From Chromatiales bacterium (lineage in GTDB: Bacteria; Pseudomonadota; Gammaproteobacteria; UBA6429; Thiohalophilaceae): a DNA stretch of 64,000 nucleotides. Under the pieces are notes generated by a model that saw only the letters and a program-made list of their open reading frames with translations, was not told the DNA's origin and searched no databases. Shown piece by piece: positions 3,667-44,903 of this stretch. The position numbers were made by a program, and so were the translations under genes. The number at the start of each line of letters is the position of its first letter. Within the stretch, counting starts at the first letter, position 1. The stretch lies in the NCBI GenBank assembly GCA_027032075.1, contig JALVOC010000172.1:16434-80433 (forward strand), in the 5' to 3' direction.

Positions 3667-4692
3667 ATGGGAGTCACGATGAACGACTGGGAAAACGCCA
3701 ATTCACCGCAATTTGAAAAAACCCTGTGCAAAGCAATCTCGTTTATCGGGGTTGGCCTGCATAGCGGTAAAAATGTAGCGATAAAAATCAAGCCACTCAT
3801 GCCCGGGAGCGGGATCCTCTTCCTGCGCAAGGATGTGCCTTGCGGCCAGGGCATGATTTCCGCTCGTTGGTACAATGTTACTGAAACCCGTTTATCCACT
3901 ACGCTGGGAAATGAACATGGTGTGACGGTGGCAACGGTGGAACATCTGCTGGCGGCACTGCACGGATGTGGTGTCGACAACGCCCTTATCGAGCTGGATG
4001 GTCCGGAAGTTCCGATTATGGATGGCAGCTCGGATCCCTTTGTCTCCACCATCGAACAAATCGGCACGGTAGCGCAACCACAGAAGCGAAACATTATCTG
4101 GATCCAGCGGCCGATTGAAGTACGCGAAGGTGACAAATACGCCATCCTCATGCCCTATAATTCATCGCGCATCACGGTTGAGATCGATTTTCCCGATTCA
4201 GCGATACGATCACAGACGCTCTCGGTTGAACTGGTCAACGAGGCTTTCAGAAATGATGTGGCAAGGGCGCGGACATTCGGCTTTTCACAACAAGTGGCTT
4301 GTCTGAAAAAACAGGGTCTGGCGCGAGGTAGCTCCCTCAACAATGCAATACTGATAGATGGCAACCGCATCGTCAATGAGGAAGGCCTGCGCTACAACGA
4401 TGAATTTGTGCGTCACAAAATCCTTGACTGCCTGGGTGATCTTGCGCTGGCGGGTGTTCCCATCATGGGACATCTGTATGCCTATAAACCCGGGCATTCA
4501 TTAAACAATCGGTTAATGCACAAGCTATTCGATGACCGAAGCAACTGGTCCTACCTATCTATGGATGAATTCCTGATGTTGACAGGCACAAGGCCTGCAA
4601 AATCGAATGATGCAACATCAAATCCGCTGGAGGAAAAAATCAGCTGCGGCCAGACGACATTTCACAAACGAAGACGTAGCAAGAACGCTTGA
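3667..4692 (+). CDS. lpxC: UDP-3-O-acyl-N-acetylglucosamine deacetylase (LpxC) homologue with ~35-aa C-terminal extension
   Basis: Collinear with E. coli LpxC: GVGLHSG, TVEHLLAAL, PIMDGSS, ARTFGF, DEFVRHKILDCLGDL and YKPGHSLNN motifs. Confidence 0.9.
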   Translation: MGVTMNDWENANSPQFEKTLCKAISFIGVGLHSGKNVAIKIKPLMPGSGILFLRKDVPCGQGMISARWYNVTETRLSTTLGNEHGVTVATVEHLLAALHGCGVDNALIELDGPEVPIMDGSSDPFVSTIEQIGTVAQPQKRNIIWIQRPIEVREGDKYAILMPYNSSRITVEIDFPDSAIRSQTLSVELVNEAFRNDVARARTFGFSQQVACLKKQGLARGSSLNNAILIDGNRIVNEEGLRYNDEFVRHKILDCLGDLALAGVPIMGHLYAYKPGHSLNNRLMHKLFDDRSNWSYLSMDEFLMLTGTRPAKSNDATSNPLEEKISCGQTTFHKRRRSKNA

Positions 4693-26324: not shown

Positions 26325-26568
26325 CGTTCCGAATACCGGATCATTTTGTATTGTTGCCGGATTCTAAATGAGTGTGCGAAAAAGGTGTCCAGTTTGTTAT
26401 TTGACAAGCCAGCTCTCCGGTACCCCATGGCAAGACTCTCGGCAGCAGGGATGCTGCCGTGAAGCTTACAGGGATGTATTCACAGCGTGTCTCGCCATGG
26501 GGTACCGGAGAGCTGGCCTCTCGATACACGGAATTATCCCCTATCAATGTGGACACCTTTTTCGCACA
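26325..26568 (+). repeat. Structured intergenic repeat, type-2 copy A
   Basis: Long-arm module 26325..26365. Nested palindromes: outer 17-bp stem 26374..26390 / 26551..26567, inner 20-bp perfect stem 26409..26428 / 26497..26516, 68-nt core 26429..26496. Confidence 0.85.
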
Positions 26569-26650
26569 GCTATCTGATTTCGCAACAGGGCCAAAGGAAC
26601 AAACAGCTTCACACCCTTTATTTTCTTGCCCGCATATAACTGAATATTTG

Positions 26651-26735
26651 TTCAGCATAGCAGATCATTTTAATATTGTATCCGGCATCGATACTCAAAG
26701 CCAGAATCAGACTTGTATGCGGAACGCAGGTTTAA
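26651..26735. repeat. Degenerate arm and terminal-repeat remnants of the same family
   Basis: cagatcattttaatattgtatccgg resembles the long arm. ccagaatcag...gtatgcggaacgcaggtttaaac resembles a deleted right arm plus terminal repeat. It abuts the chemoreceptor stop codon (26732). Confidence 0.45.
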
Positions 26736-29050
26736 ACCTTAAACTGTGCAACCAGGGACTGCAACTGTACCGACAATTTTGCAAGTTCATCACTGGCCGT
26801 TGTCGTCTGCTGAGAAGCAGATGCGGTTTCTTCCGATACCTGACTGATGGTGATGATGTTTCTGTTCATCTCCTCTGTCACGGCACTCTGCTCCTCTGCC
26901 GCACTGGCGATTTGCGTATTCATCTCACTGATGGTCGTTACCGCCCGGGTAATCGCCTCAAGGGACGAGGCCGCTTCCACCGCAAGCTCCACACCTTGTT
27001 TTGCCTGCATACGCCCTTTTTCCATTGCCTCAACAGCGCGTTGCGCCCCTGTCTGCAGGCGCTCGATCATTTCTTCGATTTCCGCAGTGGATTCCTGTGT
27101 GCGGCTGGCCAGGGTGCGCACTTCGTCGGCAACAACCGCAAATCCCCTGCCCTGCTCACCTGCACGAGCTGCTTCAATCGCGGCATTGAGCGCCAGCAGA
27201 TTGGTCTGTTCCGCAATCCCTTTAATCACATCCAGCACGGTTCCGATGTTTTCGCTGTCATGTTCGACCTGCTGAATCACATCGGCTGCGCTTTCTATAT
27301 CACCTGCCAGTTTCTCTATTTCATTCGTGGTCTGCTGTACCACGGACTTGCCGTTGTTCGCTTCGGTATCACCTTCTTGGGCAGCAGTCGCAGCAGCAGC
27401 GGCATTATTGGCGACTTCCTGTACCGTTGCAGACATTTCATTCATCGCGGTGGCGACCTGATCCGTTTCGGATCTTTGTTTTTCCACCCGCACTCCGCTT
27501 TCCTTCGCTACTGTCGACACCTCCTCGGCAGTGGATGCAAGTTGATTGGTGGCGCTGTGTACCTGCTGGATCAGAGCTTCGAATTTCTCCAGCATTTTGT
27601 TGAAAGCGCCTGCCATCATGCCAATTTCGTCTTTAGAGCTGATGCCGGCACGCACGGAAAGATCGTTGTTGTTCTCAACCTCCTCCATGACACCCCGAAG
27701 CTGAATGATCGGTCTGGTGAGATTGACCGCGAAAAACAGCCCGATACCACACGCCACGAGTGCAACTATCACACTGATTATCAACATGGTCACCAGATTG
27801 TTTCGTGTCATTTCCTTGACAACACGAAATGCCTCATCTTCATCCACTTCACTCAACAACCCCCAGTTCAGACCGGGAATGGACAGCGCCGTGTATGCGG
27901 ACAGCACGGGAATGCCACGATAATCCGGGATAATGTTAAAGCCGGTTTGCCCTGCGACCGCGGCTTTGGCCGAATCAGACTCGACCTTTTGCAGACCTAT
28001 GCTGGTTTCCTTGGCGTTGATTTCCGCAAGCACCTCTGGTGCCACGCCGTTGTTTCGCAAGGCTTCGAGATAACCCGCCTTGTCCTCTATCAGAAACCGG
28101 CTCATGCTGCGCATTTTCAGATCTCCGCCTACCAGATAGGTCTCACCTGAATCCCCCAAGCCATGTTCTTTCCATTGCTGCTCGCTGGTCATGATCTCGT
28201 TAATCCGCCCGATAGGCATCTGAAAGATCAGCACCCCGATTTTTTTATCCCCATCGAATATCGGTGATGCAATAAAGGATGCTGGCGCTTCATAAGAGGG
28301 TGTGTACGGCGCAAAATCAACCAGGGCGACAGCATCGGCATTCGCAGCGCTATTGGCCATGCGAAACACCTTGCCAATGCCGCTATTGGCATACGGTCCA
28401 TTTATCAATGATGTAGTGTAATCCAGCTCCTTGAAAACGGTATAGACGATATCACCTGTTTCCGGATCGACAAGAAAAATATCATAATATTCAAACTTGT
28501 TGAGAAAATCGCGGATATGCGGATGGTATTTTTTGTGCAAAGTTGCGTAGCGCGAATCATCGCCAGGATCATTCAGTTTGTCTTTTGTTCCCAACGGGTT
28601 CGGATTCGCCTGGATGAAACGGTACTGTAATACCACCGACTCGTCATCCAGACTGGAGAGCAAAGGATTGACATCAACGCTTTTACCCGCATTCTGTTTC
28701 TTGTATTCCTCAAGAAAATCCTTGTGGTAATAGTTGCCAAGCTCATTACGCAATCTTTCTACATCCTGCCCCTCCGCCACCTGCCGAAAGGCTTTTTTGA
28801 ACTCCCGCATCGCATCGATAATCATTACATCATTGGAAAAAGTCTGAATCTGGCCACGCAGGGTTTTGAAATAATCCTCAATCTGTGTCTTTTTCGCATC
28901 CCGCACCGCAATCAACTGTTTTTCCACTGCTTCCTCCATTGCCCCGGCGGTGGTGGTGCTGGATATTTTGTAGATAATCCCCGTGCCAATCACGAGCGGC
29001 AGGACGGCCAGACCAATGGAGGTAAAAATCAATTTCTTCTTTAAATTCAT
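26732..29050 (-). CDS. Methyl-accepting chemotaxis protein with periplasmic double-Cache-like sensor
   Basis: N-terminal TM, ~370-aa periplasmic region, second TM, HAMP, and the MA domain ([35 protein letters not shown]). Confidence 0.9.
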
Positions 29051-29781: not shown

Positions 29782-31164
29782 TCAGAAGGAAGGCGTAAAG
29801 ACAAAATCAAATGCGCCTGTCCAGTCCACACCATTTGGATAAACCGTGGTGAGATAAGCGGGATCCGCGATTGCCTCACTCCGCCAATCCTGCGGATCGG
29901 TCCCCTGGTTCGGTTCCTGCCCGGCAAATCCGTCGACAAACACCGCATTCAACAAATCGGTGCAGTCATCACCAACGTCAGCACATAAACTGCCGGTAAA
30001 ATAGGCGGGGTCCAGTGCCAATTCAGTTATGATCAAGTCCAGCGACGGATCAAATGGAATCCAGGTTCCGCCTGTTGCCGGAGTAGTGCGACCACCACGG
30101 TATTCCGCTGCGGTAATCGTCTTGTTTACATAATCCCAATCCTCATCATCCTCGAAGAAATACACGTCGGTTTTGGTAAAGAGGTAATTCCCCAGATGAT
30201 TGTTGGTATTGGCATTCAACTCCAGCGGCAAAGACAAATCCCGGAATTCGGCGATTGCCGCACCGTTACCAAAACTGTCAGATACCGTATACATCTGCAC
30301 AGTGGGGATTTCCGTAATACCGTCTGCCGGTAAAAACTGCGCTTTCATCTCAATCATGCCGCGTGCCAGAAAGACTTTGCGCAGTGGGTTTGCGTTCAGA
30401 TCTTTGTCGACCTGGATACGGAAACCTTCCGCCCACTGGTTGCCATCGTCAAAGCGTAAAAACATATCGGCCGTTTTCTCGCTGCCATCGTCATTGAAAT
30501 CCATGCGCATCATCGTGGGATCCTCGGGGTCACGGCGATCCGGATTGACACCCATGCCGTCGATGATCAGGCGACCCTCGATATTTCCGTCAGCGGCTTC
30601 GTTCCAGGAAATAAAGAACTGCGGATCATCTCCCACCTGTGGCGGCGCAGAGCGGTCATAACCGTAATACAGACGAATCGTGGTTTGCGTATCCGAATCA
30701 TCCGTTACGCTGTAATGGGTAGGGTTTTCCGGATCATAATTATCGGACGCCTTGTCATTGTCCGTTTCATGAATGATCCCGTCATGCGCTATCCAGTCTG
30801 CCACATCGATTAAAACATCCGCAACACAGGTCCAGGTGGCGACCGCAGATACCATGAATTTCGTCATTTGATAGCCGTTACGGAAGGGATTATCGTCATC
30901 CACACCCTGAAAAGCGCAAGGACCGCTGGACGCCGATGCGGCGGCAAGCGCCAACTGCCCGCGAACCGCCGTTGATTGTGTTCCGCCCGTGAGACTGTCC
31001 GGCAGGTTCATATCCAGAGACAGTTTATCGCCTGACTGCTGCCCGCCATTATCATTGGAAGTATCCTCCACCCCACCGCCACAACCGGCGAGAATGGTCA
31101 GACTCACAACCAAGGCAGGCACCAGCAACTTTTCTCTGAAGATTGTTCCGATGTTTCCAAGCAT
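29782..31164 (-). CDS. Hypothetical lipoprotein (no domain recognised)
   Basis: 460-aa ORF. Signal plus lipobox: LTILAGCGGG. Asp/Gly/Thr-rich secreted-protein composition. Confidence 0.65.
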   Translation of the reverse strand: MLGNIGTIFREKLLVPALVVSLTILAGCGGGVEDTSNDNGGQQSGDKLSLDMNLPDSLTGGTQSTAVRGQLALAAASASSGPCAFQGVDDDNPFRNGYQMTKFMVSAVATWTCVADVLIDVADWIAHDGIIHETDNDKASDNYDPENPTHYSVTDDSDTQTTIRLYYGYDRSAPPQVGDDPQFFISWNEAADGNIEGRLIIDGMGVNPDRRDPEDPTMMRMDFNDDGSEKTADMFLRFDDGNQWAEGFRIQVDKDLNANPLRKVFLARGMIEMKAQFLPADGITEIPTVQMYTVSDSFGNGAAIAEFRDLSLPLELNANTNNHLGNYLFTKTDVYFFEDDEDWDYVNKTITAAEYRGGRTTPATGGTWIPFDPSLDLIITELALDPAYFTGSLCADVGDDCTDLLNAVFVDGFAGQEPNQGTDPQDWRSEAIADPAYLTTVYPNGVDWTGAFDFVFTPSF

Positions 31165-31528
31165 GTTATTTCTCCTGTTTTCCTGGTTCTCTTTGTCTTT
31201 AAAAATACAGACGTATGTAAAATTAAAGTGTGATGGTTATTTTGCTTTCATAAAAAAAGAGACAAAAAACCCGGATATATTTGAATAATCATTACCCCAC
31301 CTGCCAAATCGTGCATAAAATCATTTAATATTGGTGGCTTGGCCTGCTCAGACGAACAACGGGCAGAGGCTGTTGCAAATAATATTTTTCAAAAATTTGC
31401 TGTTTTATTGTCTTGTTATTTAAGGAATAATCAGCGGCGAAGAGACGATGTGCAACCACTATTCTCGAAAATCAGGGGCAACGGTGACATTTAACCTCAA
31501 AACCCAAAAGATTCCGACAGCCAGCCTG

Positions 31529-33430
31529 ATGGACATCCCGGGTCATATTACCAAAGGCGTATTGGTCTTCCTGTGCATCCTCAGCATGCAACCCGCCTGG
31601 GGCAAACCACTGGCGCCACCCGACGATCCGACACAGTCCATTACCTATTGGAAGCCTCATACCATTCCGGCGGAAAAGGATCCGCTGGTGGCACAAACTC
31701 AGGCGGTATTCAGCGTATTGTTGCGGGCCTGGGACAGCTCTCGCCCTGAACCCAGCCTGTATGTGGTTGATTCCGCAGCAGGTCCCTGGGCCGCCTCGTT
31801 GGCGGATGGCAACATCTTGCTCAGTCGCGCCGCAATCGAAACATGCATGCGTTTTGGCAAGGACCGGGCAGAACACTTGTTGGCCTTTGTGCTGGCACAT
31901 GAACTGGCCCATCAACGTTCCGATGATCTCTGGCACCAACGTTTCTTTCGTCTCATCGGCAACCAAACCCCGGAAATAAAAAATAAAATGCTAAGAGGAC
32001 TGCAACTGAACAACAAACTCTGGGCAAATGTTGCACAAAAAGAAGCACAAGCCGATCATGACAGTCTCATCCTGATGTCCAGTGTAGGCTACGATCCCTA
32101 CCAGATTCTGGACAAAAAGGATTTTTTCACCATTTGGGTGGAAAACATCTGGCAAAATTCCTGCAAGCTAAGCCAGACCAACTCACCTGTGGCACAGGCC
32201 TGCAGACAGGCGCAGAGCCGCGCCTTGCGTGCCCGCACGCAGTTAACCAATGTGGCAACACAAGCCATGCTGTATGAATTGGGGATCCAGGCGTTTATCG
32301 CAGGCCGCTACCGCCAGGCACGGCGTTATTTCACCGCCTACGGGCGCAACTACCCAGGCCGTGCGGTGTTATCCGCGCTGGGCTTGAGCCATTTTGCCGA
32401 AGCATTGAATATCAACCGGCAGCTGATAGAAAAACACGGAATGAAACGTCCCGCTTTTTACTATCCGCTGTTGCTGGATGCCACCGCCAGTATCACTCCG
32501 TGGTATCCAAAATCACTCGATGCGATAAAGCGATCCGACACGGCATCCGTGTTCGAACAGCAACAGCAAAAGATGCGAAACAGCATCGAAAACAGTATCA
32601 ACAATTTTGAAAAAGCGATCCGGCTCGAACCCGATCACGCAAAATCCTATCTGCTGCTGGCTTTTTCCTATTTACTCAATGGCAATACCTATATGGCCAG
32701 GGGAGTCGTGCAGGGGAAATATATACCCAAATTTGGCAGCGATGCCGCTTCAGATCTGCTGTTGGCAATGACCAGTGCCCTTGAAGGCGATAAAACCAGG
32801 GCAAGCAGGGCATTTGCACGGCTCATTCGCCAACTTGAAAAACCTCCGGCAAAACCGGTCATTCCCGCTGATTTGCTGGTTTACAGCGCCTACTATAACA
32901 GTGCCGCCTATGCCGAATATCTGGGAGAACAGGCCAGAGCGGATAAACTGTGGAAGGATCTGGCAGTACGGGCAAAATCCAGCGGCAACAGTTTACTCTT
33001 CCGCCTGGCACTGAATCATATCACCCCCCTTGCACCGGCAATCCACCCGTTGACAAGCGCACCGAATATCAACGGTATGCGCCTGGGTGACAGGTTTTCA
33101 CCCGAATCACTGAGTAGCCAGCCACATCGGATCAATGACCTGTGGATAGAAGGCGAGCTATACCATGTTTACCGTCTGGACAACGGCAGCCGCTATATCA
33201 TCGGACCGGACCAGAAGATTATCAGCGCCTGGCAGGATGCCGGTGAAGTCAGTTTGAATAACACGATCATGCTGGGTGACAGCGCAGATCGCCCGCTGAA
33301 AACGCTGGGGGTCCCTGACCGCAGGCTCCACATGATGTCAGGTGAATATCTGGCCTATGACAACTATGGCGTGGCATTGCACATCGTCCGGAACAAAATT
33401 GCAGGATGGTTTCTTTACAATGCCAACTAA
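31529..33430 (+). CDS. Exported M48-family zinc metalloprotease with TPR-like region (BepA-like) and extra C-terminal domain
   Basis: Trimmed to MDIPGHITKGVLVFLCILSMQPAWG (signal peptide). HELAH zinc motif plus the downstream EAQADHDSLILMSSVGYDP. Helical repeat region (FEKAIRLEPDHAKSYLLLAFSYL). Confidence 0.8.
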   Translation: MDIPGHITKGVLVFLCILSMQPAWGKPLAPPDDPTQSITYWKPHTIPAEKDPLVAQTQAVFSVLLRAWDSSRPEPSLYVVDSAAGPWAASLADGNILLSRAAIETCMRFGKDRAEHLLAFVLAHELAHQRSDDLWHQRFFRLIGNQTPEIKNKMLRGLQLNNKLWANVAQKEAQADHDSLILMSSVGYDPYQILDKKDFFTIWVENIWQNSCKLSQTNSPVAQACRQAQSRALRARTQLTNVATQAMLYELGIQAFIAGRYRQARRYFTAYGRNYPGRAVLSALGLSHFAEALNINRQLIEKHGMKRPAFYYPLLLDATASITPWYPKSLDAIKRSDTASVFEQQQQKMRNSIENSINNFEKAIRLEPDHAKSYLLLAFSYLLNGNTYMARGVVQGKYIPKFGSDAASDLLLAMTSALEGDKTRASRAFARLIRQLEKPPAKPVIPADLLVYSAYYNSAAYAEYLGEQARADKLWKDLAVRAKSSGNSLLFRLALNHITPLAPAIHPLTSAPNINGMRLGDRFSPESLSSQPHRINDLWIEGELYHVYRLDNGSRYIIGPDQKIISAWQDAGEVSLNNTIMLGDSADRPLKTLGVPDRRLHMMSGEYLAYDNYGVALHIVRNKIAGWFLYNAN

Positions 33431-33494
33431 ACCACTACAAACTGACCAGATTTTCTGATAATAGCTATACTTGTTGTTACCCTCACAGCTGTTA

Positions 33495-34454
33495 ATGAAC
33501 GACATGAGCACTTCGCATAATCAGCCAGACATTACGCAGACTGAATCCGACACGGATGAGGAACAATTGCAGCTGGCACGCCTTGCAGCCGATGGGGATG
33601 AAACAGCCCGGCGCACGATCAATCAACTGATCCACCCCGTTATCAGTTACCAGACCAGCCGTTTCTGTAAACGTTTTTGCAGGGAAAACCAGTATCGCTA
33701 TGCCTGCACACTGCAGACAGCATGGGGCTCGCCCCCAGCAGATGCAGTGTTATGTGAATGGGGTAATGCCAGTTATGCCTGGATGTTGAATGATCTCACC
33801 AACCGCAAGCGCCTGTTACAGTTTGAAGGAAAAAACGGCGCGCGCATCAATGATTATCTGTACCACATTGCCAATTCCCTGCCGTTCTATGAACGCTGGA
33901 AAGACTGGCGTTTTGGCCGCAAGATCCATGTACCCACCTATATACAGGATCTGAACCCCGATGCCGCAAAAGTATTCCTCGCCCTGCGCAATGGCGAGAC
34001 GGTCCCCGCCATTGCACAGAAACTTGGCAAATCCCAGCAACAAACCGAAGTCCTGTGCCGGCAAATCATTATCACGCTCACACGGAGAAAACGCCTGCAT
34101 CTGCTGGACCCGCCAACAACAATATCACTTACGAAAGCTGCTGGTGGCGAGGTACATGACAATGACGGTGGTGGCAGTGAAACCGAGATCGCCTCCTATG
34201 ACGAGACACCGGAATCCCGGGAAGCAAAAGAAAAGCTGCTGCAGGCCTGGAGCAAACTTTCAACAGTGGAGCAATTTGTACTGGAGGCCATGCTGATCGA
34301 GGAACAGGATGCCAGCGATGTATTACAGGCATTGAAAAAACTGAATATCAGCATCAAGCAGGGAGTGGCGGCAGAAGATACGAGCCGGCAGCAATTGTAT
34401 TATTTCCGCCGTAAAACCCTTGCCAAACTGGCAGATTTAATCAAGGAGTCATGA
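33495..34454 (+). CDS. Divergent sigma-70/ECF-like protein with Cys-rich insert and two region-4-like HTH segments
   Basis: Region-2-like: INDYLYHIANSLPFYERW. HTH-like: AKVFLALRNGETVPAIAQKLGKSQQQTEVLCRQI and EQFVLEAMLIEEQDASDVLQAL. Lies directly upstream of a zf-HC2 anti-sigma-like gene. The assignment is by pattern only. Confidence 0.5.
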   Translation: MNDMSTSHNQPDITQTESDTDEEQLQLARLAADGDETARRTINQLIHPVISYQTSRFCKRFCRENQYRYACTLQTAWGSPPADAVLCEWGNASYAWMLNDLTNRKRLLQFEGKNGARINDYLYHIANSLPFYERWKDWRFGRKIHVPTYIQDLNPDAAKVFLALRNGETVPAIAQKLGKSQQQTEVLCRQIIITLTRRKRLHLLDPPTTISLTKAAGGEVHDNDGGGSETEIASYDETPESREAKEKLLQAWSKLSTVEQFVLEAMLIEEQDASDVLQALKKLNISIKQGVAAEDTSRQQLYYFRRKTLAKLADLIKES

Positions 34455-34528
34455 ATTTTTCTGTTTTTGTTTAAATCATGCCGATGTTGGCGTCTCGTTA
34501 TTCATAAACTGACTGGCAGAATGTAACC

Positions 34529-35470
34529 ATGAACACGACAACCCATCCAAATACTGAAGCGCTGGCGGCTTTTCTGGCGGATCCGCAAGCTGCGGAATTC
34601 GAGGAACTCAGCCTGCACCTGGCGAGCTGCGGCGATTGCCGCTCCCAGGTAAAAGTGCTGTCCGCCTTACGGGAGAACCCGGCCATTATTGATTCTGCCT
34701 ATCGGCAAACTGCTGCCGGGGACACCGCCGATCTTGAGCAGGCCATGCAACAGCAGCAGATTGAGTATTATGTAGATGGCCGACTGCAGGGTGAGGAAAA
34801 ACAGCGCACTGCAACACTGCTGCAAGACAATCCTCTGGCTTTGAAAGCGGCCTTGCATTATGCCTGCCACAGTTCGGCGATGCGCGGAAAAACGGCAGGC
34901 TCCCTCAATGGCTCAACCTCGGGGCAGCGCAGCAAAAACCGGCGAGAGCACTTGGCATTCATGACTGCCGTCAGACACTGGCTGAGACTGCGCACTCCCG
35001 TGTGGCTGGCAGTGCCAACCACGGCAATCGTGACCGTGACGCTGCTCCTGGTGTTGTTACCGCGCACGCCACACTATGCCGGTGATTTCACCATTGCCAG
35101 CTACCAGGACAATGCGGTCATCCAGTTCCAGAAAAAAAATCAATCACCAGGCATTGGTTTTTTCAGTAATGCACACAAGACCATCAAGCCCTATAATAAT
35201 ATGCAGGTAAAACTTGTGAGCGGGCATTCAATCGCGCTATTCTGGCCTGCGGTTGAGAAGGCGAAATCTTACACCCTGCGACTGCAAATGTTCAAAAACG
35301 GACAGAAAATCACCCTGGGAGAGGTTACCACCACAACCACCCATGCGGAATTCACGAATATCGACACCAATGCCGACCTCCGCTATGAATGGGTGTTATC
35401 CGGAGAAACAACCGACAAAAAAACCTTTTACACCTCAGGAGGTTTCGTAATCAATCATCATGATAACTGA
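34529..35470 (+). CDS. Membrane-anchored anti-sigma-factor-like protein (zf-HC2 N-terminus, periplasmic beta-sandwich-like C-terminus)
   Basis: H-x3-C-x2-C motif (LHLASCGDC). Single TM (VWLAVPTTAIVTVTLLLVLL). About 140-aa periplasmic domain. Confidence 0.65.
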   Translation: MNTTTHPNTEALAAFLADPQAAEFEELSLHLASCGDCRSQVKVLSALRENPAIIDSAYRQTAAGDTADLEQAMQQQQIEYYVDGRLQGEEKQRTATLLQDNPLALKAALHYACHSSAMRGKTAGSLNGSTSGQRSKNRREHLAFMTAVRHWLRLRTPVWLAVPTTAIVTVTLLLVLLPRTPHYAGDFTIASYQDNAVIQFQKKNQSPGIGFFSNAHKTIKPYNNMQVKLVSGHSIALFWPAVEKAKSYTLRLQMFKNGQKITLGEVTTTTTHAEFTNIDTNADLRYEWVLSGETTDKKTFYTSGGFVINHHDN

Positions 35471-36533
35471 TGTGAGGTTTGACATGTTTTTTACCATAAA
35501 TTTTTCCAGGCACAACCGCGGTAATTTACACCGCTTGGCAGCAGTGCTGTTGTTTTGCCTGTATACCGTCGTGGTTTCGGCGGAATCCAGGGGGATCACC
35601 ATAGAAACCACGACACACAACAACAATATCACCTTCCTCAACGGTACCTACCGCGCCTTGATTATCGGCAACAATGATTACCGGGACAGCGAAGGTCGCT
35701 GGCCGCCGCTGAAAACCGCTCTCACGGATGCCCGCGCATTAAAACAGATCCTCGAGGATGATTATGGCTTCACCGATATACAGCTTCTTGAAAATGCCAC
35801 ACGCAGAGACGTATTGATCGCACTACAGGAGTTGTCAAAACGTGTCATGGCCAATGACAATGTGCTGGTGTACTATGCAGGCCATGGTTATTTCGATGCA
35901 GACACAAAAAAAGGCTATTGGGTACCGGTAGACGCAAAAGGAACGGATCAAACCACTTTTTTGCGCAATTCAACCATTCGTGACGAATTAAGCATCATCG
36001 CATCCCGCAGCAGGCATACACTTCTCATCTCTGATTCCTGCTTCAGCGGTACTTTATTACGCAGCAATACCCGCAGTATACGACCCGAAATGTATACTGA
36101 TCTGTATTACCGCAAGGTGGCCACGAAAAAAAGTGTCCAAATCATGTCTTCAGGCGGCATCGAGTATGTAGATGATGACTACAATACTTCCGGCCATTCA
36201 CCTTTTACCTATTTTCTGCTGAATGAACTGAAATACAATGACCGCAAAATGCTCACCCTCAGTGAACTATCCACCAATGTGGAAAAAGCGGTGGCAAACA
36301 ATGTATCGCAGGTACCGGAAAGCGGTGTCCTGCAGGGCGCCGGGGATGAACTGGGTGAATTTATTTTTATTAAACTAAACGTTTCCGTTGATGGTGTTCC
36401 CAAAGACAAGGTAAAGGTACAAGTCAATGTTGTACCGGCTGAGGCGCAAAGTTCAAACCGGGAACCAGAAGCCGTAACACCCAGGAAACAGGACAAGATG
36501 GAGCGCCTCGTGGCCCCCATACCGACTCTTTAA
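35460..36533 (+). CDS. Exported caspase-family (peptidase C14) orthocaspase
   Basis: YRALIIGNNDY start of the p20-like fold. Catalytic His in VYYAGHG and Cys in ISDSCFSG. N-terminal hydrophobic signal/anchor. The first ATG overlaps the upstream stop by 11 nt (alternative ATG at 35484). Confidence 0.85.
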   Translation: MITDVRFDMFFTINFSRHNRGNLHRLAAVLLFCLYTVVVSAESRGITIETTTHNNNITFLNGTYRALIIGNNDYRDSEGRWPPLKTALTDARALKQILEDDYGFTDIQLLENATRRDVLIALQELSKRVMANDNVLVYYAGHGYFDADTKKGYWVPVDAKGTDQTTFLRNSTIRDELSIIASRSRHTLLISDSCFSGTLLRSNTRSIRPEMYTDLYYRKVATKKSVQIMSSGGIEYVDDDYNTSGHSPFTYFLLNELKYNDRKMLTLSELSTNVEKAVANNVSQVPESGVLQGAGDELGEFIFIKLNVSVDGVPKDKVKVQVNVVPAEAQSSNREPEAVTPRKQDKMERLVAPIPTL

Positions 36534-36553
36534 GCTGAAATGGTATAGCAACA

Positions 36554-37273
36554 ATGAAAATTACCAAAACATATCTGATACTCCTGCTGGGCAGCATCTT
36601 TTTGTATTCACTCAATGCCCAGGCAGACGGTGATTTGAGCCTGAGCCTGGGGGTGAAATTGCTCGGAGCCAACTGGAGCGGGCATAATCAGAACAGCGAC
36701 ACGGATTTCAGCGCCGGCGGCACCCAATTTGGCCTGAATGCGGCATTGCAAAAAGGCAGATTTTATACAGGACTCAATTTGCAAAGTGGCGAATACACTT
36801 TTGACGACAACGCCCCTGATCAGGTTTCCAAGTCAGGAAGTCAAAGTTATTCGAACGTTAAAATCAAACATAGCGAAGTGGATCTCATTGCCGGCTATTT
36901 TTTCTGGAAACATATCTCCCTCTTCCTGGATATAAAAGGTTTCGGCAACCAGTGGGACAATAATGACTACAAATTGGGATTTTCCGGTATTGGTTTAGGC
37001 GCCTCCGGCATGTGGCCCCTGAGCAAGCGCTGGTCTTTATATGGATCTTTCGGCTTTGTCCCTTCCGGCAAACTGGAAGCAAACAATGAAAAGATCGGCA
37101 GCGGTAGCAGCGCAGCCATCGAATTTGGCAGCATTTTCAGCTTCAATGCGAGTAATCGCCTGACACTGGGATTAAAACAACAATCACGCACCTATAAATT
37201 CGATTCAGGCGACCAGCAGGAACACAAAATGAATGGCATATTTTTGGGATATAGTCACTTGTTCCTTTACTGA
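36554..37273 (+). CDS. Small outer-membrane beta-barrel protein
   Basis: Signal peptide: MKITKTYLILLLGSIFLYSLNAQA. Alternating amphipathic strands. C-terminal aromatic ending ...GYSHLFLY. Confidence 0.7.
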   Translation: MKITKTYLILLLGSIFLYSLNAQADGDLSLSLGVKLLGANWSGHNQNSDTDFSAGGTQFGLNAALQKGRFYTGLNLQSGEYTFDDNAPDQVSKSGSQSYSNVKIKHSEVDLIAGYFFWKHISLFLDIKGFGNQWDNNDYKLGFSGIGLGASGMWPLSKRWSLYGSFGFVPSGKLEANNEKIGSGSSAAIEFGSIFSFNASNRLTLGLKQQSRTYKFDSGDQQEHKMNGIFLGYSHLFLY

Positions 37274-37304
37274 GACGACAATTTACTGATCCTGGTAATA
37301 GAAT

Positions 37305-37895
37305 TTGTCTGCACCCCGGCACGAGACAAGGCAGCACAACACACAAAAACCGCATGGCAGGAATGCTGTGGCCACTGCTGTTGTCTCCTTGCTTTTGTTT
37401 ACGCTGCTCACGGTTAACCATGCCGCTGAACCTGACACAAATAATCCCGTCCCGGCCATCACCCCCATCAAGCTGGAGATCACGACACACCTGGGTGACC
37501 GGCAAACATTTGTGGAGGGCGATACGCTCTCGTTTCTGCTCAGTCTGGATAGTGATGCCTATCTGTTGATTATCTATGAGGATGCTGCCAGCAATCTGAT
37601 CCAGTTGCTGCCAAACAGCAGAATGGGCAACAATCTTCAGCATGCCGGGGTTTTCCTCACTATCCCGCCAGCAAATGCCGGTTTCCGTTTCAAGGTGCGG
37701 GCCCCCTTTGGCGCTGAAACCTTATGGGCATTTGCTTCCGATGTGCCCTTTCCGGAATTGAAGGGCAAAAGATTGAACAACGGTCTGAAACTTCTTGACT
37801 CTGATATTCCTGCAATCCAGAAACAATTGCTTGCTCTTCCCCGTACCGCATTCGGCAGGGCAAAATTATCGATTTTCACCAAAAGCCGGGATTGA
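37305..37895 (+). CDS. Exported DUF4384-like protein
   Basis: Signal-like: AVVSLLLFTLLTVNHA. The block EGDTLSFLLSLDSDAYLLIIYEDAASNLIQLLPN is typical of DUF4384. Start uncertain (TTG at 37305 or GTG at 37368). Confidence 0.65.
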   Translation: MSAPRHETRQHNTQKPHGRNAVATAVVSLLLFTLLTVNHAAEPDTNNPVPAITPIKLEITTHLGDRQTFVEGDTLSFLLSLDSDAYLLIIYEDAASNLIQLLPNSRMGNNLQHAGVFLTIPPANAGFRFKVRAPFGAETLWAFASDVPFPELKGKRLNNGLKLLDSDIPAIQKQLLALPRTAFGRAKLSIFTKSRD

Positions 37896-40770: not shown

Positions 40771-43700
40771 CTACACTTTTTCCACTTTGGCGGGTAACCC
40801 CTGCCGGGCCACGCTGCCGACCACAAAGTCGGCCAGCACATTCAATCCCTTGCGGACCGGATCGGCGAAACCAAGATCATTGATGTTCACCCCTTTTTTC
40901 GCCAGGGCCGAACCGGGCTGCCAGTGTTCGCCAATACGGTGGCGTCTGGCACCGAGTTCATGATGCCCGAAGCCATGCTCGATTGCCAGCACACCGGGCT
41001 GGATGCCTTCGCGCACCTGGACGACGGTCTCCAGGCTTGCGCCCGGGGTGGTGATACGAATACGATCCCCTGAACGGACGCCTAACGACTCTGCATCACG
41101 CCGGTGCATGGAAACCGGATTGAGCGGATGGATCTGCTGCATGCTTGCCGTGCCAATCGTATGCGAGGACTGGTACTGCGATTTGGTGCTGATCACCTTG
41201 AAAGGCCATTTCCCGGCAGGGAAAGCCGCTTCCAGTGGTGAACCGTCGGCCAGCACCGGCGGCACCCAGGTCGGTGTACCTGGATAACGTTTGCCACTCA
41301 GGGTGTTGCGTGCCGTACCGAGGGACTCATCATAAATCTGCATCGGCTTCTTGTAGCGGCGTGCCAGCATTTCACCCTTGTAGGCCTTGGTCGCATCGGC
41401 AAACCGCCCGCCCCTGGCATAGACGTAGGCCACCTTGCGCCATTCCTCCGGTTTGAGGACTCGTTTGAGCTGTGCTGCGATGCGCTCGACACCGCCAAGC
41501 CGGATTTCTTCATCGGACGCGTCCGGCACCGCACCTCCATCGAAAGCGACATTGGCAGCGGCGCGCAAATAGAAATCCTCCGCGGTGTTGAGTGGATGCA
41601 TGCTGCCCTCCCGATCCTTGATCGCCTTGTCACCGAAACCGGGCAGCCCCATACGCCTGGCCACCTCGATGAAAAACCATTCCATGCATACGGTCCGGCC
41701 TTTGACATCCTTTACCTGTGCCGGCTCCACTACCGGCCACCGGGCGGTACTCACCTTGGTCAGATGAGCACCCCAGGCACTGGCCCAACCCCAGCTCTCA
41801 TACAAGACAGAATCCGGCACAATGTAATCTGCATAGGCATTGGATTCATTGATAAAAGGATCGATGGAAATGAGCAAGGGCAGCGCTTTGGGATCTTTCA
41901 GCTTTGATTCGATCTGTTCTTTCAGCCCCGCAATGCCGTAGAGCGGATTCGAACTCCAGAGGATCAGCGCCTTCAGGGGGTAGGGATAACCATTGAGCGC
42001 TGCGGTCAGAAACTCCGAAGACATGGCTGGAGAAAGCGGATACCAGGGTTCCCGGGACGGATAGGGCTGTTTTCCTGCCGCCTGTTTTTTTCTGAACTCA
42101 CTGCTCTTCTCGTAGGGAAACCGTTGACGTCCCAGGCCGAGCCCTTTGGGTTTGACGGCACCGGGAAATTTTTTCAGATTGTAACGCGGACCCGGTGCCA
42201 GATCCTTGAAGCGTCCACCACCCACACTGGTGCCACCCTTGCGGTTAAGATTGCCCACCAGTGCATTGAGCATGACAATGGCATAGGCAGTATAAAAACC
42301 GTTACTCCCCATCGTCCCGCCGTGGCAATCGGCTGCGGCGCGTTTGCCATGGCTGGTGAATTCCTCTGCGAGCGCGATGATGGTTTCGACTGGAATGCCA
42401 CAGAATCCGGCATATTCCTCCATCTGGTATTTATTCGCCTCATCCCGCAACAGGGTAAAACTGGTTTTTACCCTGAGGCTTTCCCCTTTGACTGTTGTGA
42501 TGCGGCCCTCGTAGAACAATTCAGCAGCACCGGCGCTGGCCTGGGAAACGGGCTTGCCGCTGGCAGCTTCGATAACAACATGAGGGGATTTTTTTGCCTC
42601 ACCGCCTGCCAGACCCAGCTGGCTGGCGCGCAGGAAGCGCCCATGCTGCGGGTGTTCCGGTTCCACGATGACGAGGTGAGTGGCATTGGAAAAAGCCGCC
42701 TCACCCGCAGCCGCGGCCGCGCGGGAATTGGGTTGTCGCAAAAAACGGGCATCATAACGATCATTTTCCAGGATCCAGCGGATCATGCCCATCACCAGTG
42801 CACCGTCGGTGTTGGGACGAATAGGTATCCAGCGGCTGCGGCTGTTGGCAGCCTGAGTGACGGAGTTGGTCAATACCGGGTCGACCACGACATATTTCAG
42901 TTTGCCCGTGCTTCGTCCGCGTGCCAGAAGCTGTCCCTGGCGTTTGAAAGGATTGCCCGCATTCCCCGGCGCGGTACCGATGAACAGCAAAAACTCCGAG
43001 TTGTTGTAATCCGGTTTGAGGTGCGGTTGTTTTTTCCAGTCCCCCAGGAGGGCAGCGTAGCCGGAACGCATGGAAAGGCCGCAATAGGAACGGTGGCCGG
43101 TAAAATTAACGGTACCAAAACTTTTTTTCGCAAAGCGGGCAGCAAAACGCAGGCGGCCGTCTTTAAAGGGCGGCATTACCGCCAGTTGGTTGGCCTTAGG
43201 TCCGAATTCGGGGTTGTCTGGATCAATGGGGGTCTTGAGATCACGGATTGCGCGCAAGCCGTCGACGTGGCCTTCACCAAACAAATCACCGCCTTCCACC
43301 ACTTCTTGCAGCAGTTGTTCCGGGGAAATCGGTGCCCATTGACCGCTGCCCCGTGGGCCAACCCGTTTCAACGGTACCTTGACGCGGTTGGGATCATCCA
43401 GTTTTTCCAGGACCGCATTGCCGCGGGCGCAGGTGGTGGAACGCCCCGACAATCCCCTTTCCTGAAACCGGCTGAGGGATCTGAAACTGTCACGCAGCGG
43501 CGTATTGAAAGGGATGTGAGGATCAGCTGATAACGGATGATAGGGATTGCCGGTTACCCGCATGACTTTTTGTGTGTTGCGATCGATACGCACCCGCACA
43601 CCGCAAACGGTGGTGCAACCCATACACATGGTGTAGGAAACGACCTGATCGGGATTCGGTGTCAGTTTTCCTGTTATCGGGTCGACCGTAAATTCCGGTG

Positions 43701-43854
43701 CCGCGGCATTACCGCTAATGGGATCATTCGGCTTTTCCGCAGCGATGACACCTTTCAGAATTTTATGTGCGGTATTGCTGTAACCAAATCCGAATGCGGC
43801 CAAAGCACCTGTAATGGTGGCACTCTTGAGAAACTTGCGGCGTGAGGTGGACAT
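40771..43854 (-). CDS. ttrA: Molybdopterin oxidoreductase catalytic subunit, tetrathionate-reductase TtrA-like
   Basis: Trimmed to MSTSRRKFLKSATITGALAAFG (Tat signal) behind an AAGGAG Shine-Dalgarno. CMGCTTVCG FeS motif. The ~1027-aa size matches TtrA rather than PsrA/PhsA. The operon context is ttrBCA plus ttrSR-like. Confidence 0.7.
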   Translation of the reverse strand: MSTSRRKFLKSATITGALAAFGFGYSNTAHKILKGVIAAEKPNDPISGNAAAPEFTVDPITGKLTPNPDQVVSYTMCMGCTTVCGVRVRIDRNTQKVMRVTGNPYHPLSADPHIPFNTPLRDSFRSLSRFQERGLSGRSTTCARGNAVLEKLDDPNRVKVPLKRVGPRGSGQWAPISPEQLLQEVVEGGDLFGEGHVDGLRAIRDLKTPIDPDNPEFGPKANQLAVMPPFKDGRLRFAARFAKKSFGTVNFTGHRSYCGLSMRSGYAALLGDWKKQPHLKPDYNNSEFLLFIGTAPGNAGNPFKRQGQLLARGRSTGKLKYVVVDPVLTNSVTQAANSRSRWIPIRPNTDGALVMGMIRWILENDRYDARFLRQPNSRAAAAAGEAAFSNATHLVIVEPEHPQHGRFLRASQLGLAGGEAKKSPHVVIEAASGKPVSQASAGAAELFYEGRITTVKGESLRVKTSFTLLRDEANKYQMEEYAGFCGIPVETIIALAEEFTSHGKRAAADCHGGTMGSNGFYTAYAIVMLNALVGNLNRKGGTSVGGGRFKDLAPGPRYNLKKFPGAVKPKGLGLGRQRFPYEKSSEFRKKQAAGKQPYPSREPWYPLSPAMSSEFLTAALNGYPYPLKALILWSSNPLYGIAGLKEQIESKLKDPKALPLLISIDPFINESNAYADYIVPDSVLYESWGWASAWGAHLTKVSTARWPVVEPAQVKDVKGRTVCMEWFFIEVARRMGLPGFGDKAIKDREGSMHPLNTAEDFYLRAAANVAFDGGAVPDASDEEIRLGGVERIAAQLKRVLKPEEWRKVAYVYARGGRFADATKAYKGEMLARRYKKPMQIYDESLGTARNTLSGKRYPGTPTWVPPVLADGSPLEAAFPAGKWPFKVISTKSQYQSSHTIGTASMQQIHPLNPVSMHRRDAESLGVRSGDRIRITTPGASLETVVQVREGIQPGVLAIEHGFGHHELGARRHRIGEHWQPGSALAKKGVNINDLGFADPVRKGLNVLADFVVGSVARQGLPAKVEKV

Positions 43855-43886
43855 AGTGAAATCTCCTTTGTCGAAAACTTGACGAT

Positions 43887-44903
43887 TCAGGCTTGTGTCT
43901 TGCGTTTCTGCAAAGGCAGAAAACGGATGATCAGAAGCAGCAGAACAACCCACAGTCCCAGAGAACCGATGATGCCCAGAACGTCTTCTGTGCCAAACGT
44001 GAGTTCATCAAAATAAAAACCCGCAGCGTTTTTCGGGATCCCCTGTCCGCCGATGAACATGTTCCAGCGAAACATCCAGGCACCGAAGACTGCGAGGAAA
44101 CCCGCCAGCCAGGCATAACCCGACTTGCCTGCGCTCAAGCCGAGGGGAACAATCCCGCCGAGAAAAAGGCCGAAGAAAAGCATGTCAAGCGGCAGATATT
44201 CCTCACCCAGTCTCATCAATTGCTCGCCGGATTGTGACAAGCCCATGAGACCGGCAAACATCCATGTCAGCTGCAGCACGATGCCAAGCAGCAGATAAAT
44301 GAACATATAGCGTTTCAGCTTAAGCGCAGTAAACTCGTCGTTTCCAAGAAAACGATTCAACAACAAACCCATGCCGGCGGCACCACTCATCGCGGTGATC
44401 AGGAAAAGCACGCCTAACCAGGCGGTGTTCCAGAGAGGCCGGCTGATGAGGATACCCATCTCACTGCCGGTATACAGCGCCACCAGCAAACCGGTGAGCA
44501 GCGTAATTCCTCCCAGCATACGTATCACAGCCTGTTCCCGGTCGGCGGCGGCACGGTAGACAGAGAAGGCATAAGCCAGCAGCGACAACAGATAGGCTGG
44601 CAAAAAGAAGGACCCCCACGACATCCAGGAGGAAGGAGTGAAATGCAAATAAAACTGGTAAAAACGTGCCGGTTGATGCAGATCCGAGACCAGCGCCACC
44701 GGTGCCACCAGCCCGGTGCTCAAGGCAACGACAAGCCCGATACGGCCCATGCTTTCAAGTTCCCGGCGGCGGAACACAAACGCCGGCATGCTCAGCAACA
44801 TGCCACCGATACTGATCCCGATGAGGAAAAAATATTGTACCGCCCAGGAGTTCCAGGTGATCTCACGGCTGACATTGATCATTTCGATAATTTGCGTATT
44901 CAT
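43887..44903 (-). CDS. ttrC: NrfD/PsrC-type integral membrane quinol-interacting subunit, TtrC-like
   Basis: Trimmed to the ATG at 44903, which overlaps the ttrB stop (ATGA). About 338 aa, polytopic. Confidence 0.7.
   Translation of the reverse strand: MNTQIIEMINVSREITWNSWAVQYFFLIGISIGGMLLSMPAFVFRRRELESMGRIGLVVALSTGLVAPVALVSDLHQPARFYQFYLHFTPSSWMSWGSFFLPAYLLSLLAYAFSVYRAAADREQAVIRMLGGITLLTGLLVALYTGSEMGILISRPLWNTAWLGVLFLITAMSGAAGMGLLLNRFLGNDEFTALKLKRYMFIYLLLGIVLQLTWMFAGLMGLSQSGEQLMRLGEEYLPLDMLFFGLFLGGIVPLGLSAGKSGYAWLAGFLAVFGAWMFRWNMFIGGQGIPKNAAGFYFDELTFGTEDVLGIIGSLGLWVVLLLLIIRFLPLQKRKTQA

Follow-up and report, generated by a model that had tools for sequence, protein, structure and literature searches.

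We analysed a stretch of 64,000 nucleotides from a Chromatiales bacterium (contig JALVOC010000172.1, positions 16,434 to 80,433 of the forward strand), which we call the window. Our results support the view that it carries an envelope module, conserved and self-contained, with a sigma-like/anti-sigma pair of its own and a caspase whose catalytic dyad is intact. The module consists of seven genes, g0 to g6 (Table 1). An earlier reading made from the letters alone (the sequence-only reading) had described a block of six co-directional open reading frames (ORFs) in positions 31529-37895, g1 to g6, separated by gaps of 64, 74, -11, 20 and 31 nucleotides. Both the ORFs and the gaps are as claimed, but the divergent gene g0, which is present in 34 loci, had been overlooked.

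The gene order g0(-) g1 g2 g3 g4 g5 g6(+) recurs in 63 loci with unrelated flanks. These loci were obtained by scanning 185,579 species-representative genomes with the g2 alignment, and they come from 62 metagenome-assembled genomes (MAGs) and one scaffold of an Olavius endosymbiont. The order was identical in the three contigs of different origin that were inspected first, and searching the 63 loci with the window proteins (tblastn) gave the order g1-g2-g3-g4-g5-g6 almost everywhere. Among the Gammaproteobacteria, the carriers belong to Thiohalomonadales, Acidiferrobacteraceae, Thioalkalispiraceae, Chromatiales, Ectothiorhodospiraceae and Pseudomonadales; there are also Desulfobacterota, Nitrospirota (including Nitrospira and Manganitrophaceae) and the Olavius Gamma 3 symbiont. 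When all flanking ORFs were clustered, only seven families recurred, and these are the module genes themselves: g2 (61 loci), g1 (56), g3 (53), the C14 caspase and the outer-membrane protein (47), the DUF4384 protein (47) and g0 (34). The next commonest flank is a two-component system, found in 8 loci. Since only these seven families recur in otherwise varied surroundings, the module is a discrete unit. Three points on which the sequence-only reading could be checked by computation came out in its favour: the neighbourhood is conserved, a sigma fold is present in g2, and the caspase dyad is intact.

The domain calls were made on the window proteins first, and the four weak ones (M48, zf-HC2, OMP_b-brl and sigma) were re-examined on the families of orthologues. 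Two calls are strong, C14 and DUF4384. Taken on the window protein by itself, each of the others is weak, and these four appear to hold at the family level. Signal peptides and the lipobox of g0 were judged by eye. In the published literature on DUF4384, C14 or orthocaspases with anti-sigma factors we found no description of this module. The kind of module is already known, that is, sigma/anti-sigma signalling coupled to a caspase-fold protease; the new parts are the sigma family, the promoter motif, the predicted outer-membrane tether and the g0 lipoprotein.

Table 1. Genes and promoter-like elements of the module (window positions)
Feature	Position	Strand	Description
g0	29782..31164	-	460-amino-acid lipoprotein, lipobox LAGC, divergent from g1
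P_g0	31260..31286	-	ATTCAAA-N16-GTCT towards g0; exact 6-mer core, one mismatch to the 7-mer
P_g1	31387..31413	+	TTTCAAA-N16-GTCT towards g1-g2; exact match
g1	31529..33430	+	exported, 633 amino acids; N-terminal M48-like zincin domain, TPR repeats, conserved C-terminal domain
g2	33495..34454	+	319-amino-acid divergent sigma-70-family-like protein; ORF opens at TTG 33471
P_g3	34469..34495	+	degenerate GTTTAAAT-N16-GTCTC (GTTTAAA-N16-GTCT), starts 60 nucleotides before the g3 ATG
g3	34529..35470	+	313 amino acids, single-pass membrane protein; predicted N-terminal zinc-binding anti-sigma (ZAS) domain, transmembrane segment ~157-177, fn3-like periplasmic domain of ~135 amino acids
g4	35460..36533	+	exported C14 caspase, orthocaspase type; likelier start ATG 35484
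g5	36554..37273	+	small predicted outer-membrane beta-barrel, putative caspase anchor
g6	37305..37895	+	exported DUF4384 protein

The sigma-like/anti-sigma pair and its promoter-like motif

At the level of sequence, g2 is barely recognisable. The window protein gives only a faint match to TIGR02937 (E=4e-3, 16.8 bits against a cut-off of 42.9), with no match in Pfam, including Sigma70_r2 and Sigma70_r4, and none at threshold among the NCBIfam sigma models. All of its 507 homologues are annotated as hypothetical and have no Pfam domains; the best 120 of the 507 share 55-70% identity with it. A profile search of 1.84e9 representative proteins returned 133 matches (clusters) at E<=1e-3, which is far too few to include ordinary sigma factors, so that by sequence g2 forms a family of its own. 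When the g2 profile was searched against the PDB by sequence, the only result was a weak match to the helix-turn-helix (HTH) domain of RcsB.

The structure model is more informative. The AlphaFold2 (AF2) model of g2, with a predicted local distance difference test (pLDDT) score of 81, has an N-terminal helical domain carrying a Cys-bearing hairpin and an aromatic/basic motif, followed by a short linker and an HTH domain (residues 148-197), then by a disordered acidic linker of 35 residues and a C-terminal four-helix HTH domain. The sigma-2 and sigma-4 helical folds stand in their canonical order. In a Foldseek search against the PDB, the top 50 matches were all members of the sigma-70 family, among them SigD, sigmaS, SigB, sigma32, FliA and WhiG, with a best E-value of 2.6e-4 over about 300 aligned columns; the TM-scores are low (about 0.23), as is expected for proteins built as beads on a string. 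The divergent sigma-like protein with a sigma fold, which the sequence-only reading had proposed, is therefore borne out by model and structure search. By fold and layout g2 appears to be sigma-like, and closer to group 3 than to the extracytoplasmic function (ECF, group 4) factors: it has 319 amino acids and three folded regions instead of the two domains and ~170-220 amino acids of an ECF factor, and it scores below threshold with the ECF model.

Invariant in the g2 alignment are C58, C62, C71 and C87 together with the stretch PFYERWKDWRF; the latter and QQLYYFRRK, the putative DNA-recognition segments, are invariant or nearly so. The cysteines follow the pattern FCKRFC...C...CEWGN, which lies in and next to the hairpin inserted in the sigma-2-like domain; they could bind zinc or an iron-sulfur cluster, g2 being a sigma-like protein of the cytoplasm. 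Two longer sigma-like proteins of about 500 amino acids (P0152 and P0181) carry extra regions without a Pfam match, which could be fusions or run-ons of the gene calling.

For g3, the sequence-only reading had suggested a zf-HC2 membrane anti-sigma-like protein. The Pfam match of the window protein is weak (zf-HC2, E=9e-3, 16.6 bits against a cut-off of 22.2, and a faint fn3_2), and the suggestion holds at the level of the family. In an alignment of 39 sequences, H30, C34 and C37 are invariant and H6 is conserved in at least 90%, which gives the ZAS motif of H-x3-C-x2-C with an upstream His in an N-terminal domain. Searched against the PDB, the g3 profile matched the anti-sigma factors ChrR (E=2e-3), RslA (0.016), RsiW (0.23) and DdvA (0.29). 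Furthermore, H6/H30/C34/C37 of g3 align with H6/H31/C35/C38 of ChrR, the zinc ligands of that protein. Most of the invariant positions of g3 lie in its periplasmic domain (PGIGFF, W239, W288 and GGF), and this conservation suggests that g3 binds a conserved partner rather than a variable ligand.

A 7-mer is strikingly frequent in the intergenic regions between g0 and g1 (29 loci). It belongs to a bipartite element, aattTTTCAAAT-N16-GTCTCtT, of which one copy faces g1 and the other g0. We rejected TTTGAAA, the reading of the 7-mer that would resemble the -35 element of sigma32: no conserved sequence follows it in that orientation, and the opposite strand reads TTTCAAA-N16-GTCT. In the window, exact TTCAAA-N16-GTCT occurs twice, both times in the g0-g1 intergenic region, against 0.12 occurrences expected. 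In 797 kb of related loci we found 123 exact matches of the core, where about 1.5 are expected at the rate of the window. They stand upstream of g1 (39 matches), g3 (38) and g0 (27), and most of the remaining 19 occupy places where one would look for a g0 or g3 that is truncated or was not called.

Counting per gene, with at most one mismatch, a spacer of 15-17 nucleotides and a distance of up to 260 nucleotides upstream, we see the motif in front of g0 in 31/33 loci, of g1 in 45/50 and of g3 in 46/52. It is found in front of g2 in 0/59 loci, of g4 in 0/46, of g5 in 0/45 and of g6 in 2/23, and 10 of 400 random control segments contain it. The motif precedes only g0, g1 and g3, so that the module appears to be organised in three co-regulated units (g0; g1-g2; g3-g4-g5-g6) that share one promoter type; the single transcript envisaged by the sequence-only reading is not supported. 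In its fixed spacer and its position upstream of module genes, the motif resembles a sigma-70 promoter. It has an ECF-like GTCT element, and its median distance to the start codons is 61-92 nucleotides. On the simplest reading, g2 would itself recognise the motif and regulate its own expression, in keeping with how little the motif varies and how little the g2 helices that would read the DNA do. Within the module, promoters of the sigma-70 type and intrinsic terminators are no commoner than in shuffled sequence.

The caspase, the barrel and the other envelope proteins

The assignment of the caspase g4 is a strong one. It matches Peptidase_C14 (PF00656) with E=3e-26 and 92.9 bits against a cut-off of 21.4, and the catalytic motifs YYAGHG and SDSCFSG are kept in at least 95% of 46 aligned caspases, in agreement with the intact His/Cys dyad noted before. 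The CHAT match stays below threshold (21.8 bits against 24), as does the model for EACC1-associated caspases, NF047832 (84.3 bits against 140). The C-terminal part of g4 consists of a variable linker rich in Lys, Pro and Ala, and it ends in (V/L/I)-P-x-P-(T/S)-(L/F)-COOH in nearly all unfused orthologues.

The overlap of 11 nucleotides between g3 and g4, from which translational coupling had been proposed, is probably an artefact of ORF calling. A GAGG stands 7 nucleotides upstream of ATG 35484, and ATG 35460 lacks one; three other loci show no overlap between the called genes, g3 and g4 being separated there by 7, 17 and 55 nucleotides. Coupling is thus unsupported.

The window protein of g5 matches OMP_b-brl (PF13505) below the cut-off (E=1.6e-3, 19.1 bits against 28.7). 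The family is matched by 20/33 orthologues, the best with E=3e-11, and the small outer-membrane beta-barrel of the sequence-only reading is supported at this level. A signal peptide and the terminal ...LFLY are seen by eye, and neither profile nor sequence of g5 has a match in the PDB.

In three loci, caspase and barrel are naturally fused in frame: L010 (553 amino acids) and L025 (545), both from Desulfobacterota, and L060 (563), from a Pseudomonadales MAG, that is, in at least two phyla. In these fusions the linker of the caspase runs straight into the barrel, and both the terminal PxPTL-type motif and the signal peptide of the barrel are lost. Such Rosetta-stone fusions argue that the separate caspase is normally docked to the g5 barrel at the periplasmic face of the outer membrane, with the linker and the terminal motif as the proposed means. 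We also noticed that in one locus the barrel gene is present in two tandem copies (L006:11051-12554), and that in another a second copy of the caspase, cut by the end of the contig, follows the barrel (L007:10699-11349).

For g1, the match to Peptidase_M48 (PF01435) is weak, with E=3e-3 and 17.7 bits where the cut-off is 20.3. The TPR match of the window protein is weak too. At the family level, TPR is clear and 16/34 orthologues match M48 weakly (E<0.01); the residues H124-E125-x-x-H128 and E172/A175/D176 are invariant. Searched against the PDB, the g1 profile finds TPR proteins only and no M48 protein, and in the NCBIfam output for g1 there is neither BepA nor another M48 family. Of the exported, BepA-like M48-TPR protein proposed earlier, we can therefore keep the M48-like domain and the TPR repeats, and 'BepA-like' for this architecture only, since no BepA model is matched. 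An alternative in-frame start of g1, ATG 31448, would give a protein of 660 amino acids. It lies 61 nucleotides from the motif, compared with a median of 65 in the other loci, and so restores the usual distance of ~61-65 nucleotides between promoter and start; on the other hand, the 27 residues that it adds before the signal peptide have no counterpart in the orthologue alignments. If g1 starts at 31529, the 5' leader is 81 nucleotides longer.

The DUF4384 assignment of g6 (PF14326, E=4e-17, 62.5 bits against a cut-off of 27; 47 loci) confirms the exported DUF4384-like protein of the sequence-only reading; by sequence, g6 has no match in the PDB.

Orthologues of g0 stand on the opposite strand upstream of g1 in 34 loci, with 43-68% identity, and the lipobox residue Cys28 is invariant. 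None of 32 members has a Pfam match (0/32) and there is no match by sequence in the PDB. The confident AF2 model (pLDDT 83, predicted TM-score 0.80) shows a long helix followed by about 12 strands, for which Foldseek finds nothing significant in the PDB (best E=0.03). C83, C113, C394 and C401 are also invariant, and these four cysteines would fit periplasmic disulfides. Two longer forms of g0, P0270 and P0286 (697 amino acids), have extra regions without a Pfam match, which could again be fusions or gene-calling run-ons. In two loci a gene of the DNA_alkylation family (PF08713) sits between g0 and g1 (L001:5068-5817 and L071:798-1505), and in the first of them g0 retains its own promoter motif.

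Related loci, a proposed mechanism and alternative explanations

Some loci deviate from the common layout, and across them the g2-g3 pair is the constant core of the module. In L061, g2-g3 are followed by a DUF4384 protein and a different C14 protein. In L062, a C14-FGE-sulfatase fusion (1943-3712, minus strand), g1 and a DUF4384 lipoprotein of 719 amino acids lie on the strand opposite to g2-g3. In L041 (10987-15094), the promoter motif stands after g3 and is followed by a lipoprotein of 220 amino acids, an MltC-like lytic transglycosylase and a lipoprotein of 757 amino acids, which has DUF4384 at its C-terminus, like the 719-amino-acid lipoprotein of L062.

Distant relatives of g2 could be traced to 32 metagenome loci (L072-L103). 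We refer to them as the sister family: its sigma-like protein is homologous to g2 (hhalign 99.1%, E=1e-18) and has a faint Sigma70_r4_2 match. An anti-sigma-like gene accompanies it in 27/32 loci, directly downstream wherever this was inspected; its N-terminus is related to that of g3 (88% probability), and some members keep the HxxxCxxC motif. Two exported proteins are also encoded in the sister loci, a trypsin-like protease and a TPR-CHAT protein, the latter of the caspase fold. These two stand in place of the M48-TPR and C14 proteins of the module, and there are no relatives of g0, g5 or g6. Both kinds of module thus share the homologous sigma-like protein, the related anti-sigma-like N-terminus downstream of it, two exported proteases, one of them caspase-fold, and TPR. 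The sister modules are themselves uncharacterised, and offer no functional anchor. A sigma factor of this type, a ZAS-like anti-sigma, a caspase-fold protease, TPR and a second protease recur together while the components are swapped, which suggests a functional tie between the proteases and the regulatory pair. Among the comparative arguments for such a tie, this recurrence across families seems to us the best.

Three details of the sister loci may be added. A Cys pattern similar to that of g2 is found in some members of the family, and most lack it. The loci contain small conserved ORFs (clusters C4-C7). An element 'ttatTCGTCTa' lies 13-42 nucleotides upstream of the anti-sigma-like gene and of some small genes; its TCGTCT resembles a -10 element, as does the corresponding part of the motif in our module.

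Sequence analysis supports the gene content, conservation, sigma fold, ZAS motif, catalytic motifs, motif distribution and fusions described so far. From these we infer a self-regulating switch of envelope signalling and proteolysis made of all seven genes, which we put forward tentatively, at a little short of an even chance. In this switch, g2 would direct RNA polymerase to the three copies of its own promoter type, TTTCAAA-N16-GTCT, and the zinc-binding, single-pass g3 would sequester g2 at the inner membrane. The g5 barrel would keep the caspase g4 at the outer membrane by way of the flexible linker and the C-terminal docking motif of g4, with the M48-like/TPR metalloprotease g1, the DUF4384 protein g6 and g0, a lipoprotein without recognisable fold, as the other parts in the envelope. 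On an envelope signal, a periplasmic protease of the module itself would clip the periplasmic domain of g3. The likeliest candidate is the caspase on its outer-membrane tether; g1 might process it beforehand or be processed by it. The site-2 protease and cytoplasmic proteases of the host would then complete the release of g2, and the freed g2 would induce all three operons, a loop in which g2 and the proteases would feed back positively and g3 negatively.

Several points weigh against this proposal. Both the proteolysis of g3 and the choice of its protease are conjecture. The linker between the transmembrane segment of g3 and its periplasmic domain is short, unlike the long flexible linker of DdvA. 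L041 keeps g1-g2-g3 and a DUF4384 domain with no C14 protein seen in 17.9 kb, so that the caspase is not strictly required for the sigma/anti-sigma pair. For g2, all curated sigma sequence models score below threshold, and its central domain is ambiguous, being sigma-3-like by position and faintly sigma-4-like by profile. Recognition of the motif by a different sigma factor, or by a transcription factor, is also conceivable. Finally, the part of the host genome covered is 64 kb only, and the regulon may be larger.

The closest precedents are DdvA-DdvS, an anti-sigma/sigma pair from Myxococcus, and the protease complex of type III-E CRISPR systems known as Craspase; because of them regulated proteolysis is plausible here. 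DdvA combines a ZAS domain with a periplasmic TPR-CHAT part, and its self-cleavage at site 1 before the action of RseP has been proposed, not demonstrated (PMC11506125). DdvA-DdvS and the module both have a single-pass anti-sigma with an N-terminal zinc-binding domain, and a caspase-fold His-Cys protease and TPR on the periplasmic side; release by regulated proteolysis is a proposal in both, and the g3 profile weakly matches the N-terminal domain of DdvA. The combination of ZAS and periplasmic TPR-CHAT in one polypeptide, which defines the DdvA type (PMC11506125), is not found in g3, whose periplasmic part has ~135 amino acids and is fn3-like. Here the protease is C14 instead of CHAT, and caspase, TPR (on the M48-like g1) and anti-sigma are three proteins; the caspase appears to be anchored to the outer membrane and not to the anti-sigma. 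Moreover, g2 belongs to a three-domain, unmodelled family and is not an ECF sigma factor, and the apparent regulon is the module itself instead of a CRISPR island or an island of the anti-phage system CBASS. The module adds an outer-membrane barrel, a DUF4384 protein and a lipoprotein without recognisable fold.

Craspase uses the protease Csx29 to cleave Csx30, a protein that binds the sigma factor RpoE and of which some C-terminal domains are DUF4384 (bioRxiv 10.1101/2022.08.17.504292). The Craspase set (TPR-CHAT protein Csx29, Csx30, Csx31 and RpoE; see also PMC10028731) shares with the module a caspase-fold protease and TPR in genetic linkage with a sigma factor and a sigma-binding protein, as well as DUF4384, which is found in some Csx30 C-termini and in g6. 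It is different in being cytoplasmic, RNA-guided and dependent on Cas7-11, whereas the proteases here are exported. We found no cas genes among the module ORFs and their conserved flanks and no PADLOC match to CRISPR-Cas; CRISPR arrays were not specifically searched for. Of the set that characterises type III-E Craspase (Cas7-11, Csx29 and an array), there is no cas-related PADLOC match, and g4 is a C14 protein. Csx30 and Csx31 were not among the PDB matches of the g0, g3 and g6 profiles.

Two further systems resemble parts of the module. The prototype of the ZAS proteins, ChrR of Rhodobacter sphaeroides with its sigmaE (PDB 2q1z, 2z2s), is what the g3 profile matches best in the PDB; it is a soluble protein that ends in a cupin domain, whereas g3 spans the membrane and has a periplasmic fn3-like domain. 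The other system differs in its sigma family, has RseA in place of a ZAS anti-sigma and uses other proteases: it is sigmaE of Escherichia coli, which is autoregulated, held by the single-pass anti-sigma RseA and released by the DegS/RseP cascade, and whose regulon includes the M48-TPR protein BepA. Autoregulation, a single-pass anti-sigma, a trigger by periplasmic proteolysis and an M48-plus-TPR protease are what we propose for the module as well, and the GTCT-type -10 element is like that of ECF promoters. On the other hand, g1 matches no BepA model, and sigma and anti-sigma are here in separate units, each with its own copy of the promoter.

In the main alternative, the proteases are only outputs. 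The module would then be a regulon for envelope quality control or remodelling, like that of sigmaE with BepA and DegP, and g3 would be inactivated by a host site-1 protease, by binding of g6 or g0, or by redox or metal chemistry at the ZAS site of g3 or the four cysteines of g2. All non-regulatory products are indeed envelope proteins whose genes are under the module's own motif, and in its M48-plus-TPR build g1 resembles BepA, a periplasmic protease that in E. coli is under the control of sigmaE. L041 does without a C14 protein while keeping g1-g3, the putative metal sites in g2 (four Cys) and g3 (H/H/C/C) could sense signals directly, and the high conservation (55-70% across phyla) is more typical of a housekeeping-like function. 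What makes us consider this alternative somewhat unlikely is that a caspase-fold protease recurs with this type of sigma/anti-sigma pair in two divergent families and two variant loci, and so seems to be more than a passenger. In addition, no BepA model is matched by g1, and the precedents tie caspase-fold proteases directly to the inactivation of anti-sigma factors (PMC11506125; bioRxiv 10.1101/2022.08.17.504292). Taken together, variants, sister family and precedents give comparative support to a coupling between a caspase-fold protease and this type of sigma/anti-sigma pair.

The same precedents are linked to defence (PMC11506125; bioRxiv 10.1101/2022.08.17.504292), and the module could be an anti-phage or programmed-death system, in which an envelope insult frees the sigma factor, and the periplasmic caspase and metalloprotease, once induced, destroy envelope proteins, in the manner of abortive infection. 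Its sporadic occurrence (63 loci among 185,579 genomes, in three phyla and with differing flanks) suggests horizontal transfer, and positive feedback could yield an all-or-none response. Yet PADLOC recognises only a generic caspase and none of the other six proteins, and the model for EACC1-type caspases stays below its cut-off (84 against 140 bits). The neighbours are housekeeping or respiratory genes and not defence genes, no relatives were seen in viral contigs or plasmids, the composition matches that of the host, and for a defence system the conservation of the proteins would be unusually high. For such a defence role, or the cell-suicide role that the sequence-only reading had also considered, we found no positive evidence, and we judge it improbable. 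Still less probable, and in our view very much so, is that g2 is no sigma factor at all but an HTH regulator or a protein with another role, the motif being used by a sigma factor or regulator of the host. It is true that no curated sigma model reaches its threshold, that the Foldseek TM-scores are low (about 0.23) with modest E-values, and that RcsB is the only, weak, match by PDB profile search. Nevertheless, the top 50 structural matches are all sigma factors over ~300 columns, the domain layout of g2 fits a sigma factor, the sister family has its faint Sigma70_r4_2 match, and the partner g3 is a predicted ZAS-type anti-sigma. Furthermore, the motif is bipartite, with a fixed spacer of 16 nucleotides and an ECF-like GTCT, at a median of 61-92 nucleotides from start codons.

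The functions of bacterial orthocaspases are largely unknown, and only DdvA-DdvS and Craspase link caspase-fold proteases to the control of sigma factors, both of them tied to defence islands. The module described here is a compact, widely conserved and apparently self-contained circuit, composed of a predicted sigma factor with three copies of a predicted promoter, a predicted anti-sigma, a predicted anchor in the outer membrane and two proteases that are candidates for cleavage at site 1. It exposes a sigma-like family missed by current domain libraries, and a lipoprotein family (460 amino acids) that no available method recognises. If the proteolytic link is true, caspase-type control of transcription across the bacterial envelope would be a general principle and not a curiosity. 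In a wider and more doubtful generalisation, which we think somewhat unlikely, g2 and the sister family would be an unrecognised branch of sigma factors without a Pfam model, devoted to exported modules of two proteases that centre on a caspase-fold enzyme (C14 or TPR-CHAT), and DdvA-DdvS and Craspase would be special cases of a general axis from caspase to sigma factor in the envelope. This branch would carry, in g2, an invariant metal or redox site of four cysteines. As the caspase would hang from the outer membrane and the anti-sigma, its substrate, would sit in the inner one, what the switch senses could be the physical state of the periplasm or the distance from one membrane to the other.

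Surroundings of the module

The sequence-only reading had taken the block for AT-rich, acquired DNA. This is not supported: the GC content of the module is only marginally low (0.501 compared with 0.531 for the window), 11.6% of equal-sized windows being at least as low, and its GC content at third codon positions (GC3) equals that of the neighbouring pcm and methyl-accepting chemotaxis protein (MCP) genes. We therefore discard an AT-rich acquired island on both GC and GC3; nothing in a composition so near to that of the host points to recent acquisition. The patchiness of its distribution over three phyla, on the other hand, suggests horizontal spread. We found no relatives in viral contigs or plasmids, PADLOC gave only the generic caspase match for the module proteins, and Rfam and tRNA scans of the window found nothing.

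The records of two loci, L002 and L071, are labelled Kaarinaea lacus, and the NCBI taxonomy puts the genus Kaarinaea in the Nostocales cyanobacteria, while all other carriers are Pseudomonadota, Desulfobacterota or Nitrospirota. The two contigs may come from bacteria that were co-assembled with a cyanobacterium. Several paralogues in Kaarinaea lacus can be ruled out because the proteins stem from different assemblies.

The flanking pcm, ahcY and TtrA-like genes were confirmed. The last of these (40771-43953, minus strand) encodes a molybdopterin oxidoreductase nearest to TtrA, with 1259 bits against an equivalog cut-off of 1750, so that 'tetrathionate reductase' can be used for it as a family-level label only. 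An ORF of 563 amino acids at 26459-28150 (plus strand) lies almost wholly antisense to the MCP gene (26732-29050, minus strand; MCPsignal, E=3e-44) and is almost certainly a shadow ORF.

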